Positions 10,592 to 15,454 of a DNA stretch of 64,000 bases are shown in pieces. The DNA is taken from the sequence record PQ826431.1; one strand, given 5' to 3'. Origin of the DNA: a phage. Every line of letters starts with the position of its first letter. Position 1 is the first letter of the stretch. The notes under the pieces were generated by a model. The model was not told the origin of the DNA and made no database searches. It was given only the letters and a program-made list of their open reading frames with translations. The position numbers and the translations under genes were made by a program.

Positions 10592-10625
10592 ACTCATTGG
10601 AATTAAGTTTCTAACAGGAGCATAA

Positions 10626-11999
10626 ATGGCAACTTTTCGTGAAAAGGTAGCAACCGTAACTTTACTGTATGGTGCTACATCAATTCGTGAAACCCAGTTC
10701 GATATTCCCCTGATCCTTACAGGTCAGAACGTAACTGGCGAAGCGATTCAATATTACTCTTCTTCCGATGCACTTTTGGAAGCAGGTTATGGATTAAATG
10801 ATCCAGCGTATATTATGGCAGTCAAACTGTTTAACGGTTTGTTCCCACCAGATCAAGTCATGGTTGGTAAGCGTGAAGTTACAAACTTTACTCTAACTCC
10901 AATCGTAGAAGATAGTGCAACTTACACAATTACCATCAAAAATGGTACCAAGAAAAAAGAATTTAAATTCATTGCTGATGACACTGCAACTGCACAAGAG
11001 ATTGTAGTTGGTCTGACTGAAATGATCAATGCAGATCTTGTTTATGGCCCACTGTTTACAGTAGCTAACAACGGCGCTGCAATGACTTTCACTCCAGTAG
11101 AAGGTAAGTTTGGTTCTATTGACAGCACAGGTTTCACTCAAGAAACTGTCTATGCTAATGCTATTACGGAAGATATTGCTGCTCTGCATGATATTGATAG
11201 TAGCTGGTTCTGGACCCTTTCAGATTCCCATGAAACAGAAGATGTTCTAGCTTTGGCTGCATGGGTAGAAGAGAATGATAAAGTTTACTTCTTCTCTAGC
11301 TCTGAACCTGGAATTAAAACGAAAGCAGAAGATAACGTTCTGGAACGACTGAATGACCTCGGTTATAATAACACTTGCTTTGCTTTGTGGATGACCGATG
11401 CAGATTCTGTATTCCCAGAAGCAGCAGTTGTTGGTGCAATCTGTTCTCGTCAGCCTGGTTTAACTACTCTTCACGGTAAAACACTGGTAGGTGTAGAGAT
11501 CGAGAAACTGGATCAGACTTCGGAAAACAATATTGTTCAACAGAACGGTAACATCTATCGTAAAGAGCATGGAACTCTGTTCTATCGTGATGGATTGATG
11601 GTTAGCGGTTTCTTTGTTGACTATGTTGTTCATGCTTTGTGGTTTAAAGCTCGCACAGAAGAATCACTGTTTACACTGTTTAAACAACAGTCTATGCTGG
11701 GTGGTGGTGTTCGTGCTACTTCAAACGGTCTGGCTTTGATTCGACAAGCTGTTCTGGCTAACCCGATCCAAGTAGGTATCCTCAACGGTTCCATCGCTAA
11801 TGAAGTTGTTACTTCTGAAGAGACTGGTTTGCGTGTCGATCTGAAACCTATTGTTTATATTCCTTCTCGTGCTGATATGACTGATGCGCAAATCAATGCT
11901 CGTCTGGTCGATGGGATGAAGATTGAATATGTTTACGCTGGCTTCTTCCATTACGTTAAAGTTCAGGTCAACGTCCTGACTAACCGTACTGCAAACTAA
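10626..11999 (+). CDS. putative tail sheath protein
   Basis: 457 aa protein followed by about 160 aa tube-sized protein, chaperone pair and tape measure. Confidence 0.55.
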   Translation: MATFREKVATVTLLYGATSIRETQFDIPLILTGQNVTGEAIQYYSSSDALLEAGYGLNDPAYIMAVKLFNGLFPPDQVMVGKREVTNFTLTPIVEDSATYTITIKNGTKKKEFKFIADDTATAQEIVVGLTEMINADLVYGPLFTVANNGAAMTFTPVEGKFGSIDSTGFTQETVYANAITEDIAALHDIDSSWFWTLSDSHETEDVLALAAWVEENDKVYFFSSSEPGIKTKAEDNVLERLNDLGYNNTCFALWMTDADSVFPEAAVVGAICSRQPGLTTLHGKTLVGVEIEKLDQTSENNIVQQNGNIYRKEHGTLFYRDGLMVSGFFVDYVVHALWFKARTEESLFTLFKQQSMLGGGVRATSNGLALIRQAVLANPIQVGILNGSIANEVVTSEETGLRVDLKPIVYIPSRADMTDAQINARLVDGMKIEYVYAGFFHYVKVQVNVLTNRTAN

Positions 12000-12045
12000 T
12001 ACGGCGGGGGTTAAGCCCCCGTTATCAAAATAAAGAGGATCTATA

Positions 12046-12525
12046 ATGGATAAAATGCTTACTGGCGTAATGGCCTACGACCCATCTCAAGTTATCCTTT
12101 CATTAGGTGGTTGGGAACCGTGGGGTTTTGCGGCTGATACTAAAATCGTTATTGCTAAATCTAACGATATTATCAACCCTTATTCAGGGACTGATGGTGA
12201 CGTTTCACTAGCTTTGAGTCGTAACCGTTTGGGAACACTCACAATGTCTTTGCAACGCACATCTCCAGCTAATGAAGTACTTGCAACATATGCACAAACA
12301 ATGTATTCTACTCGTCAAGTAGCATTCAGCGTTTACTTGGAAGACCCACGTGGCTATTACATTAGCACGATTGGATGGATTCAAAGTCAGCCTGAAGATA
12401 CTATTGGCGAAATGATTACAGAGAACCAATGGGTTATTGGTCTTAAAGATGCAAGCCTTCTGCGTAATGAAGTTGGTGTAGGTTTGAGCACCCTTAACTC
12501 AATCTCTGCTCTGACAATTCAATAA
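12046..12525 (+). CDS. putative tail tube protein
   Basis: 159 aa between sheath and chaperone genes; followed by strong terminator. Confidence 0.5.
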   Translation: MDKMLTGVMAYDPSQVILSLGGWEPWGFAADTKIVIAKSNDIINPYSGTDGDVSLALSRNRLGTLTMSLQRTSPANEVLATYAQTMYSTRQVAFSVYLEDPRGYYISTIGWIQSQPEDTIGEMITENQWVIGLKDASLLRNEVGVGLSTLNSISALTIQ

Positions 12526-12532
12526 TAAATAA

Positions 12533-12552
12533 AGGGCAGAAATGCCCTTTTT
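12533..12552 (+). terminator. rho-independent terminator
   Basis: AGGGCA-GAAA-TGCCCT hairpin then TTTTT. Confidence 0.6.
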
Positions 12553-12570
12553 ATCATTAGAGAGGAAAAT

Positions 12571-13053
12571 ATGTCACAAGAACAAGATAACACAATTCAA
12601 AAATATGCTCGACCAGAAGAAGTAGTTGAGATTCCGTTAGATGGAAACAGATCTGTTACTTTCCGTATTATGAAGTGGAGTCCATCTAAAGTGTTTGACA
12701 GGATTCCAGAATTGGGTAGTGTTCTGGTTGTTCCTATGACTATGTACAGCACAGCAACAATGTCCGCAGACGAAGACCTTGAGTCACGTATTGCTATGGC
12801 ACTGATCCAACTTTTTGCAGGTTTGGAAGAAAAGAATTTAACTGTCTTTTTGCGTAAAATTTTAGATGAGGTTTATACTCAAGACGGTTATAACGTTGCA
12901 GAAAATTTTGACGAATTATTTATGGCTCACCCAGAACTAGTGTTAGATCTTACTGCTAAAGTTCTGGAGGTAAACTACGGCCCTTTTTTCAAACGAGGTT
13001 TCGGAAAACTGTTCACACAGCTTCAGGCGATGACGAGTTTAGCAGCAAATTAA
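12571..13053 (+). CDS. tail assembly chaperone (G-like, frame 1 product)
   Basis: Position between tube and tape measure; contains slippery heptamer near its 3' end. Confidence 0.55.
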   Translation: MSQEQDNTIQKYARPEEVVEIPLDGNRSVTFRIMKWSPSKVFDRIPELGSVLVVPMTMYSTATMSADEDLESRIAMALIQLFAGLEEKNLTVFLRKILDEVYTQDGYNVAENFDELFMAHPELVLDLTAKVLEVNYGPFFKRGFGKLFTQLQAMTSLAAN

Positions 13054-13319
13054 CACCTGCGATTGAACATGCTATCGACACAGCAACGAAAACCCTTACT
13101 TTGAAGTGGTATGAGGTTATTCTTTGCAAAGTCGTTAAAGATACCTCGGAAACACTGAAAACATTGGATAACTACGGTGTAGATTATCTTTTAAAACTAT
13201 ATGAGTATTTAACATACGAAGAGTATGTTGAAGCCATGTATGTTAAAGACACTTCAATAAAGAGAAAACATCAAAACCAGACAAATAAAATGTCAGATTT
13301 GTTTAAGAAACTTGTTTAA
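12571..13319 (+). CDS. tail assembly chaperone frameshift fusion product (GT-like)
   Basis: Joins ORF 12571-13053 with ORF 13101-13319 through a -1 shift at about 12990; the -1 frame has no stop between 12990 and 13319. Confidence 0.5.
12984..12990 (+). other. -1 programmed ribosomal frameshift slippery site T_TTT_TTC
   Basis: Heptamer in X_XXY_YYZ register in the chaperone frame; -1 frame stays open to 13319. Confidence 0.55.
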
Positions 13320-13339
13320 TCCAACACGAGGAACATACT

Positions 13340-15328
13340 TTGTTAGAAATTAACGCCTCCAAAATTAGTAACGTGGTTACGTTTAAGGTGGACAAGAACA
13401 GTCTCAAGGAAGCAAAAGATGCCGTGTTGAGTGTTCAGAAGTTTGCAAATAAAATGCAACCCACTATGAACATGACCAAGTTTAGACAACAAATGAAAGA
13501 GATTGAGCGTGAACTTAAGAAAGCTCAAACTCAAAGTCAAAAACCTATGCGAGCACCTACTCCCGCTGGAGCGGGTGCTCCTGTAGGTGGATCTGGCAGA
13601 CCAAGAACTCCTAAAACCCCGCAAGGAAGAGAAGAAGAAAAAGCTCGTAAAGCGGCTGAACGCGAAGCTAAAGCAGCAGCACGTAGGGAAGACTTAGGTA
13701 ATCTTCGTTTGCAAAACTTTAACTACCGAGCAAAAGCATTTAGTAAAGCCAGCCCTGGCGCTATACAAGAAGCTAGAGACGTTATGGGTAAAGCTGTAGA
13801 GCAATACAAAAAGGGTGAAATAACTCTTCAACGTATGAACCAAGCTCTTGCTCACCAGTTAGATGCCTTACGCAGATCTCATCGTGAAAAGAATGCTGAA
13901 ATAGAAGACGAGGTTCGCGGTCGTCGCCGTATTCGTAGAGAGCTAGAAGCAGAAGCTAAAATGCGTATACGTATGCGAAATCGTGAACTTAGAGATATAG
14001 AACGCAACCGTAAGCGTGAATTAGCTCAACAAAAACGTGATCGTGATCGTCGATATGGACAATTAAAAGAAGGTGCAGCAGGTCTTAATCCACGTATGAT
14101 TGCATCCTCTTTGATAGGTGCTGGGCTGTTTGCAGGTGGTTCTGTAGTTGGTAACACGTTGATGAATACTAACGAAAGAATTAAACTTGTAAGTCGTGGC
14201 GCTGAAAACGTTCAGACAAACGCCAACGCTATTTTGGCAATGACAGCTTGGGGTGAACAGAACGGTGTAGACTCTGCAAATATTATTAAATCAATAGATA
14301 ATATTAAAGACGTTCGTGAACGTCTTGGTAATACAGTTTTAGCCTCAAAATGGAATGAGAAAGAAGGGAAGTGGAAAGGCGGTGATAATGGCATAAATGA
14401 CATTATGAACTTGTTTGGATGGAATCCAGAACAGCTTAAACCTTTACAGAACGACCCTTTAGCTTTTATTCAGGCTACTGTTAATGAAGGTGAGCGTCGA
14501 GGTATGAACTCTGCTCAAATCGGGCGACTTCTTGAAAACCTTGGTGACGACCTTATGCACTACCAGCGCATGTTTAGTAAAAACGGCGAAGGGTATAATG
14601 AGGTATTGAAAATGCTTCAAAGAACAGGTGCAACATTAACTCAAGAACAAATAGATGCTTCTAAAGAGTTTACTCGTTTTGCTGCAACAGTTCAGCTTGT
14701 AGGTCAAGGTATGCAGAACCATTTCTTAGAGGGTTTTGTGAAAGCCTTACCTAAAGATGATTCTTGGTTGGATAACGTTAAAGTGCTAGATCAGTTTGCC
14801 AAAGATTTAGGTGAAGAACTTGGTAAAACAACAGTTCAACTTGGTGGTTTTGCTAAAGAATTGGGAGATGGTTTCGGATCTTTTACCAATTGGCTTAAAG
14901 AAACATTCCCAGATACCTTCGGAGACAACACAGATCCTAATAAATCTATGGCACAAAAAGCATACGAGGCAACGCAAAGTGGAGACAGTAACCCTGTAGC
15001 AGATTGGTTGTACAATTTAACAGGTATTGATACACAAGATATTGGTCGTATGTGGAGAGGAGAACAAACAAGGACACGTGCTTTTGGATTTGGTAATCCT
15101 CTTGAAGATTTACGTGAATCAGCCTATACACCTAACGTAAGTTTGGCTCGTAATCAACCTGTTGTTGAGAATACGGTAGCAATACCAAGTGATCTTATCA
15201 AAGTTACGATCAGTCCTTCTTCCGAGTTTGGAAATATTCTTGATGCAAGAATTCAAAATAGCGGAAATAGCATTTTCCAACGTTTGTCTCTTTCAACTCT
15301 AAGTGGACAATCTAGCACTGGTGGTTAA
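13340..15328 (+). CDS. tail tape measure protein
   Basis: 662 aa, Arg/Glu-rich coiled-coil (RRRIRRELEAEAKMRIRMRNRELRDIERNRKRELAQQKRDRDRR), hydrophobic Gly-rich segment; follows chaperone pair. Confidence 0.7.
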   Translation: MLEINASKISNVVTFKVDKNSLKEAKDAVLSVQKFANKMQPTMNMTKFRQQMKEIERELKKAQTQSQKPMRAPTPAGAGAPVGGSGRPRTPKTPQGREEEKARKAAEREAKAAARREDLGNLRLQNFNYRAKAFSKASPGAIQEARDVMGKAVEQYKKGEITLQRMNQALAHQLDALRRSHREKNAEIEDEVRGRRRIRRELEAEAKMRIRMRNRELRDIERNRKRELAQQKRDRDRRYGQLKEGAAGLNPRMIASSLIGAGLFAGGSVVGNTLMNTNERIKLVSRGAENVQTNANAILAMTAWGEQNGVDSANIIKSIDNIKDVRERLGNTVLASKWNEKEGKWKGGDNGINDIMNLFGWNPEQLKPLQNDPLAFIQATVNEGERRGMNSAQIGRLLENLGDDLMHYQRMFSKNGEGYNEVLKMLQRTGATLTQEQIDASKEFTRFAATVQLVGQGMQNHFLEGFVKALPKDDSWLDNVKVLDQFAKDLGEELGKTTVQLGGFAKELGDGFGSFTNWLKETFPDTFGDNTDPNKSMAQKAYEATQSGDSNPVADWLYNLTGIDTQDIGRMWRGEQTRTRAFGFGNPLEDLRESAYTPNVSLARNQPVVENTVAIPSDLIKVTISPSSEFGNILDARIQNSGNSIFQRLSLSTLSGQSSTGG

Positions 15329-15335
15329 TAAAATA

Positions 15336-15360
15336 CCTCGCTTCGGCGGGGTTTTTTCGT
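15336..15360 (+). terminator. rho-independent terminator after tape measure gene
   Basis: CCTCGC-TTCG-GCGGGG hairpin then TTTTTTCGTTT. Confidence 0.65.
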
Positions 15361-15365
15361 TTCCC

Positions 15366-15395
15366 TTGACACGAAGTTTCTATATGTGTTACAAT
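15366..15395 (+). promoter_or_regulatory. putative strong sigma70 promoter for baseplate operon
   Basis: TTGACA, 18 nt spacer, TGtTACAAT extended -10. Confidence 0.5.
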
Positions 15396-15454
15396 AATCA
15401 ATATGGGAAGATCTTGCATCTTCCTTTTGGCATTATCATTACTACGAGGTTATC

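Follow-up and report, generated by a model that had tools for sequence, protein, structure and literature searches.

A predicted programmed -1 ribosomal frameshift in the tail assembly chaperone gene of phAPEC8-like phages

The closest described relatives of the system considered here are the lambda G/GT tail assembly chaperone frameshift (Levin, Hendrix and Casjens 1993; Xu, Hendrix and Duda 2004, 2013, 2014, as summarised in PMC5009743) and the P2 E/E+E' frameshift, the efficiency of which is 2-3 times that of lambda (PMC5009743). A 2025 paper predicted a -1 TAC-N/TAC-NC frameshift with an invariant GTTTTT motif in the Vandenendeviridae (Pseudomonas phage Adele) and the Andersonviridae, and linked the virion module of these families to the Vequintavirinae and Stephanstirmvirinae (PMC12846349). 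Here we describe a 64,000-nucleotide stretch of phage DNA (sequence record PQ826431.1), referred to below as the window, whose region 10600-15400 shares 99-99.9% identity with phAPEC8-like coliphages (Phapecoctavirus, Stephanstirmvirinae). Its tail assembly chaperone gene and the open reading frame (ORF) that follows appear to be joined by programmed -1 ribosomal frameshifting, of the type known from lambda G/GT and P2 E/E+E', a reading to which we assign a probability of roughly 0.9. The elements of the predicted frameshift are as follows:

12571..13053, + strand: zero-frame tail assembly chaperone TAC-N (gpG analogue), 160 amino acids (aa), 18.2 kDa, stop TAA at 13051-13053
12965..12971, + strand: internal Shine-Dalgarno (SD)-like UGGAGGU, candidate 5' stimulator, anti-SD duplex -10.7 kcal/mol
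12981..12990, + strand: slippery run C_CCT_TTT_TTC comprising two overlapping canonical heptamers, of which T_TTT_TTC (12984-12990) is the conserved one
12990..13319, + strand: predicted -1 frame extension after the slip, 109 codons plus stop at 13317-13319, giving the fusion TAC-NC of 249 aa and 28.8 kDa
12990..13053, + strand: dual-coding overlap, with the RFR motif and linker in the -1 frame and the 20-aa TAC-N tail in the zero frame
13054..13100, + strand: stretch annotated as intergenic, coding in the -1 frame (LTPAIEHAIDTATKTLT) as judged by its substitution pattern and by a peptide conserved across relatives
13101..13319, + strand: 'hypothetical protein' ORF of public annotations, TTG start, 72 codons, read here as the C-terminal part of the fusion

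An initial annotation of this DNA had placed the heptamer T_TTT_TTC in the zero frame about 60 nt before the chaperone stop, and both the sequence and its translations agree: the heptamer occupies 12984-12990, its register is X_XXY_YYZ, exactly 60 nt separate it from the stop codon, and the zero-frame codons at the site are GGC CCT TTT TTC (G137 P138 F139 F140). The -1 frame had likewise been described as open from the heptamer through ORF 13101-13319. This was borne out: past a stop at 12957-12959, the frame reads without interruption from 12960 until the stop at 13317-13319, providing 109 codons after the slip and containing the listed TTG ORF. A second in-register canonical heptamer, C_CCT_TTT (12981-12987), overlaps T_TTT_TTC and had been missed; the same protein (..GPFFQTR..; ..NYGPFF-QTRFRK..) results whichever of the two slips. 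Entry to the -1 ORF is possible only between 12960 and 13050, an interval in which the C_CCT_TTT_TTC run supplies the only canonical heptamers. Heptamers of the form H_HH.U_UU.Y are among the most efficient in E. coli, where U_UUU_UUC and C_CCU_UUU each shift at >0.1% without stimulators (PMC4066793). The +1 frame was also considered and was rejected, being open for only 7 codons across the stop.

As an empirical null, we scanned all ORFs of 150 aa or longer, on either strand of the window, for in-register canonical heptamers. These numbered 59, with a median open -1 run of 5 codons. The two chaperone sites were the only ones to read past their own zero-frame stop, and the next longest run was 39 codons. 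The combination of heptamer and open -1 frame is not a chance pattern.

Conservation of the site was measured across relatives. Using tblastn, the window chaperone matched 359 phage records and its rV5 homologue matched 496, and 16 loci were fetched across the diversity of the chaperone matches. Those of the Stephanstirmvirinae were phi92, 05F01 and phiWec181; those of the Vequintavirinae were rV5, SSE121, Hena1, KpS8, CB7, CR9, 18-1-2, UPEC06 and SNUABM01; and the others were Aeromonas 4L372D, Rheinheimera Barba30A and Vibrio S4-7. Felix O1 was not reached by tblastn with either the window or the rV5 chaperone, and the Andersonviridae are covered here only via PMC12846349. A codon alignment of 14 sequences (the window and 13 relatives with T_TTT_TTC) comprised 151 columns. 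T_TTT_TTC occupied the same aligned codons in 14/14 homologues, which span 28-82% protein identity and belong to the Stephanstirmvirinae, Vequintavirinae and Plateaulakevirus; in the 13 relatives, with identity down to 28-35%, the heptamer position reads NYG[P/C]FF, or YKSFF in 4L372D. These 13 relatives had a -1 frame open for 117-141 codons and a +1 frame that was not open, and the -1 extension was open in all 16 homologous loci examined. Invariant codons were found in only 3 of the 151 aligned columns, namely those of Trp36 (a single-codon residue), F139 (TTT) and F140 (TTC), while third positions elsewhere in the alignment displayed an average majority identity of 52%. Base 12984 was T in 14/14 sequences, though the codon that it closes varies between CCT, TGT and AGT (Pro, Cys and Ser).

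In two more distant homologues, Phe-Phe is missing and a different canonical heptamer occupies the corresponding position: G_GGA_AAG in Rheinheimera phage Barba30A (locus L017, 1830-1836) and A_AAT_TTT in Vibrio phage S4-7 (locus L012, 1800-1806), each followed by a homologous -1 domain. These alignments indicate that the slippery sequence turned over within one gene family. Since three different heptamers share one register, tandem slippage of transfer RNAs (tRNAs) is favoured, and neither Phe-Phe nor a T run appears to be required. Taken together, the three heptamers at one position and the T kept across Pro, Cys and Ser codons indicate that the slip site is constrained at the nucleotide level, through selection on the slippery RNA, rather than by the amino acid encoded.

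A conserved U_UUC tetramer (window 12999-13002, GGT TTC) is located 9 nt past the heptamer, and GGTTTC is present in 12-13 of the 14 homologues. Its conservation is probably explained by dual coding, as it specifies Gly-Phe in the zero frame and Arg-Phe-Arg in the -1 frame. In E. coli only one tetramer is more prone to shifting than U_UUC (PMC4066793), and the one at 12999-13002 could serve as a minor second entry into the same -1 frame.

The peptides encoded in the -1 frame align from the slip site on, and comprise an invariant RFR motif, a variable Gly/Ser/Asp-rich linker and a conserved ~65-aa domain (..SL.W[YF]D..L...EYL..), the conservation of which begins upstream of every annotated start of the second ORF. 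Within the 47 nt at 13054-13100, substitutions at -1-frame positions 1/2/3 numbered 4/4/11 for phi92, 2/3/12 for phiWec181 and 8/1/11 for 05F01, and a similar third-position bias was observed within the Vequintavirinae. Because substitutions pile onto -1-frame third positions, the pattern indicates purifying selection on a -1-frame protein upstream of the annotated start. That start bears no recognizable signal of its own: the 17 nt before TTG 13101 form an anti-SD duplex of +0.1 kcal/mol, whereas genuine gene starts of the window (n = 24) have a median of -6.95 kcal/mol, with values from -2.4 to -9.8. Starts called for the second ORF are TTG, ATG or CTG at >7 positions, differing even between close relatives, and the Hena1 record annotates no second ORF. 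We found no single in-frame ORF joining both parts among 41 and 18 database matches to the fusion and C-terminal queries, respectively; all of these matches were either ~160-aa chaperones or 64-85-aa gene-caller fragments. Taken together, the comparisons indicate that ORF 13101-13319 is the C-terminal part of the fusion and not a separate gene. The 17 GenBank/RefSeq records that we inspected (17/17) nevertheless annotate either two coding sequences or only one, and the 249-aa product appears in none. The two outcomes differ in the peptides that they predict. The junction peptide predicted for the fusion is VLEVNYGPFFQTR, and TVHTASGDDEFSSK and LTPAIEHAIDTATK are encoded in the -1 frame upstream of the annotated TTG; VLEVNYGPFFK and LFTQLQAMTSLAAN are expected without frameshifting.

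The 160-aa zero-frame protein matches Pfam PF21822 Phage_TAC_15 over residues 29-143 (84.3 bits versus a cut-off of 22, E 1.3e-23), and also PHROG 3840, 'tail assembly chaperone'. An AlphaFold2 model of this product reached a mean predicted local distance difference test (pLDDT) score of 72 and a predicted template modelling score (pTM) of 0.64, and suggests that it may adopt a chaperone-like fold. The last confident helix of the model spans residues 121-141 and stops where slippage would occur (F139-F140), and the pLDDT of the 20-aa zero-frame tail is below 50. Because of these two features, the slip site in the model coincides with a domain boundary, which is where a G/GT fusion would be expected to join. 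The solved chaperones taken for structural comparison were HK97 chaperone 2ob9 and YqbN 3klu; no sequence match to solved structures was found. The initial annotation had assigned the locus to the G/GT-type arrangement between tube and tape measure genes, an assignment upheld by the gene order, the Phage_TAC_15 match, the conserved in-register heptamer, the second ORF lacking a start signal and the -1 coding constraint upstream of it.

The mechanism that we infer, together with the occurrence and efficiency of the shift, the role of UGGAGGU and the function of the two products, would be as follows. Most ribosomes would translate 12571-13053 and stop, yielding the 160-aa TAC-N. A minority would slip on U_UUU_UUC with tRNA-Phe in both the P site (UUU) and the A site (UUC) or, alternatively, on C_CCU_UUU with tRNA-Pro and tRNA-Phe. 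Both tRNAs would re-pair one base back, and translation would resume at CAA (12990) and run in the -1 frame up to 13319. The resulting 249-aa TAC-NC fusion (..VNYGPFF-QTRFRK..; 28.8 kDa) would retain the chaperone domain and exchange the 20-aa zero-frame tail for the linker and the conserved, helical ~65-aa domain. By analogy with lambda, the two products would act in a fixed ratio, coating the tape measure protein and recruiting the tube protein, and would be absent from the finished virion.

Three other explanations were weighed against a ribosomal frameshift. The 72-codon ORF might instead be an independent gene, its TTG being used either for de novo initiation or for re-initiation once ribosomes have terminated at the TAA at 13051, with the heptamer a by-product of Phe-Phe. 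The public records inspected (17) annotate the locus in this way, and an in-frame start-type codon is indeed present. However, that TTG lacks an SD (+0.1 kcal/mol versus -2.4 to -9.8 kcal/mol at the 24 real starts), starts called in relatives are inconsistent (TTG, ATG or CTG at >7 positions) or, in Hena1, missing, and ahead of them the -1 frame is already open and subject to selection at the protein level. Moreover, base 12984 stays T while the amino acid varies, and distant homologues without Phe-Phe have other canonical heptamers. We therefore consider two separate genes very improbable.

No more probable is transcriptional slippage, in which RNA polymerase would stutter on T6 and add one U to some mRNAs, leading to the same fusion. 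The site is a homopolymeric run of six T and the product would be identical to the ribosomal one, so that sequence alone cannot fully separate the two routes. Productive bacterial cases have, however, been described for longer runs of ~9 A or T (PMC5009743), and the GGGAAAG of Barba30A and AAATTTT of S4-7 keep the X_XXY_YYZ register without a homopolymer of 6. Recoding of this kind typically involves a conserved A or T homopolymer of 7-9 or more, independent of codon register, and the run here is only T6. What is conserved is the zero-frame register, a feature relevant to ribosomes and not to RNA polymerase. Strongly disfavoured, and the least probable of the three, is the view that the heptamer and open -1 frame are a coincidence and that the long product is neither made nor needed: the site has no counterpart in the window, its synonymous positions are conserved between subfamilies, and the -1 frame shows the marks of purifying selection.

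Several observations weigh against a programmed ribosomal frameshift. No fusion peptide or reporter assay for this clade was found in the searchable literature, and the rV5 genomics/proteomics paper neither contains the word 'frameshift' nor names either ORF. Modelled alone, the -1 part yielded a low-confidence helical model (pLDDT 62). The SD-like element is absent from KpS8, CB7, 4L372D and Barba30A, and part of its conservation elsewhere could stem from the underlying conserved Leu-Glu-Val codons. Lastly, no downstream stimulatory structure was detected. RNA folding was applied to segments of 47-101 nt after or around the heptamer and, as alignment folds, to 4 Stephanstirmvirinae and 9 Vequintavirinae sequences; fold z-scores ranged from +0.13 to +0.76 relative to shuffled controls. 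Consensus energies from alifold were -1.6 and -0.3 kcal/mol, and changes on both sides that kept a pair were observed for 0/10 pairs in one set and 1/7 in the other. The search for such a structure, proposed as a check in the initial annotation, thus came back negative, with segments folding no better than shuffles and essentially no covariation; the only predicted 'structure' paired the U run with a downstream A-rich stretch. Because no downstream structure was found, the efficiency of the shift may be low.

The candidate 5' element, UGGAGGU (12965-12971), lies 9 nt before C_CCT_TTT and 12 nt before T_TTT_TTC. Its duplex with the 3' end of 16S rRNA (-10.7 kcal/mol) is stronger than 24/24 SDs of real gene starts and ranks among the strongest 0.3% of coding windows. 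Strong versions of the element occur in 4/4 Stephanstirmvirinae, rV5 and 18-1-2; a further 6 relatives have a moderate one, and 4 lack it. In phi92 and phiWec181 it reads GAGGUGA instead, where a change of the Leu codon from CTG to CTT is accompanied by GTA to GTG, keeping complementarity. SD-like sequences 6-17 nt before a heptamer were experimentally stimulatory in E. coli (PMC4066793), and the same source uses the criterion of an SD-like sequence 6-17 nt before the motif that is conserved in at least 50% of homologues. An SD-like core occurs in about 10 of 16 homologues (GGAGG at 12966-12970 in the window); from the end of GGAGG the distance is 12 nt to C_CCU_UUU and 15 nt to U_UUU_UUC, the counting convention of PMC4066793 not being clear. 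These findings suggest that UGGAGGU may act as a lineage-variable 5' stimulator. We regard as unlikely a stronger version of this idea, in which the Stephanstirmvirinae signal would have been rebuilt as a structure-free cassette of a 10-nt double run and a very strong internal SD, shifting at 10-20% or more compared to the few per cent typical of G/GT. Were it true, the higher shift rate would give a different chaperone ratio for the tail of a 150-kb myovirus.

On the + strand of the window the genes follow the order sheath, tube, chaperone, -1 ORF and tape measure. The neighbouring features are:

10626..11999, + strand: tail sheath gene (PHROG 205, E 2.9e-100; Pfam DUF3383; annotated as tail sheath in phAPEC8)
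12046..12525, + strand: tail tube gene (PHROG 280, E 3.1e-35; Pfam KPP10_Orf10 slightly below cut-off)
12531..12550, + strand: terminator-like hairpin separating the tube gene from the chaperone gene, with a stem of 8 bp and then a T-rich tail (putative terminator in the phAPEC8 annotation)
13340..15328, + strand: tape measure protein gene (PHROG 16051 tail length tape measure protein, 1247 bits; same annotation in phAPEC8)

The tube gene is labelled 'virion structural protein' or DUF3277 in public records, and 'potential tail tube' in Klebsiella phage 05F01. The hairpin at 12531-12550 may act as an attenuator, lowering transcription and thereby the dose of the chaperone and tape measure genes relative to those of the sheath and tube. 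Records disagree on the start of the tape measure gene: that of phAPEC8 uses a TTG equivalent to window position 13340 with GAGGA upstream, and that of ETEC-TG starts 126 nt later (L002, 3367) and adds an extra 48-aa ORF 3' of the tape measure gene. The phi92 RefSeq record annotates a 'hypothetical tRNA' within the tail sheath coding sequence (L003, 464-556). Because ARAGORN found no tRNA across the homologous 64-kb window, this annotation is probably spurious.

Three relatives carry additional material between the chaperone -1 ORF and the tape measure gene. Pectobacterium phage CB7 has two extra ORFs (L010, 2300-3370), Barba30A an opposite-strand 'DNA binding protein' gene (L017, 2132-2770) and Aeromonas 4L372D a gap of 320 nt (L016, 2205-2524), all of which may be insertions of mobile DNA, the module being compact elsewhere. 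Records labelled 'Campylobacter phage' (A110a, C7, C14, A147 and others) and 'Acinetobacter phage vB_AbaM_ABPW7' encode chaperones identical to those of E. coli phi92-, rV5- and phAPEC8-like phages, sharing 75%, 35% and 100% identity with the window protein, exactly as their E. coli counterparts do. The host labels of these records may be unreliable.

We found no description of a frameshift for Phapecoctavirus, phAPEC8, Stephanstirmvirinae, Vequintavirinae, rV5 or phi92 in the searchable literature; a Klebsiella paper that mentions 'frameshift peptides' was set aside, as it concerns T4-like phages and not this group. The result is of value for annotation, as the 359 matching records include phAPEC8, phi92, rV5 and many therapy candidates. 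In 17/17 inspected records, either a spurious 'hypothetical protein' with an arbitrary start is listed or the second ORF is left unannotated, and the 249-aa frameshift product goes unlisted. The locus also represents a natural experiment, in which three canonical heptamers occur at one homologous position and one nucleotide is kept across Pro, Cys and Ser codons. Our findings extend the 2025 prediction (PMC12846349) for the Vandenendeviridae and Andersonviridae to the Stephanstirmvirinae, Vequintavirinae, Plateaulakevirus and Barbavirus. This wider distribution supports the view that the frameshift signal had a single ancient origin in a large assemblage of myoviruses. The locus belongs to the conserved kind of tailed-phage chaperone frameshift recognized by Xu, Hendrix and Duda 2004, with a gene order of the P2 type.

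Comparison with systems outside the tail genes places the site apart from the class that relies on 3' structure (IS911, dnaX and coronavirus type), as no stem-loop or pseudoknot was found 5-9 nt downstream of the heptamer. Like E. coli dnaX and IS911 (Larsen et al. 1994; PMC4066793), the chaperone gene has an SD-like GGAGG roughly within stimulatory distance. Unlike it, both also possess a 3' stem-loop, of which none was detected here, and the SD-like element is not present in all of the relatives of the window.

The Vandenendeviridae and Andersonviridae, as presented in PMC12846349, share with this locus the same mis-annotation of a 'hypothetical protein' between chaperone and tape measure, a T-run slippery site at the 3' end of TAC-N and a -1 frame that is uninterrupted in all alleles. 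The Vequintavirinae homologues analysed here read TG_TTT_TTC and thereby contain the GTTTTT motif given in that text. In contrast, the Stephanstirmvirinae have a C before the run (CCC TTT TTC), so that GTTTTT is absent and the second heptamer, C_CCU_UUU, is created. The survey in that paper concerns the Vandenendeviridae and Andersonviridae, and its available text does not describe the site in the Stephanstirmvirinae (PMC12846349).

Like the phAPEC8-like phages, P2 is a myovirus in which the sheath and tube genes are followed by the chaperone with its -1 extension and then by the tape measure, although its E/E+E' proteins form a family unrelated to the present one at the sequence level. The slippery sequence of P2 E/E+E' is a T run too. 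This frameshift was reportedly described by Christie et al. 2002, and its efficiency was reportedly measured at roughly 10%.

Lambda differs in more respects. Its heptamer is G_GGA_AAG, whereas here U_UUU_UUC is overlapped by C_CCU_UUU; the phage described here has a contractile tail, with a sheath gene upstream; nothing resembling gpG or gpT was detected at the sequence level, the family being Pfam Phage_TAC_15; and a strong internal SD-like element lies upstream of the site. Lambda G/GT is not known to need a downstream structure, and none was found at the phAPEC8-like site either. In both cases the tape measure gene is separated from the gene for the major tail or tube protein by two overlapping ORFs, the second of them has no independent start, and the arrangement yields, here by prediction, a short major and a long minor product. 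Furthermore, one distant homologue of the present family, that of Barba30A, has lambda's own heptamer, G_GGA_AAG.

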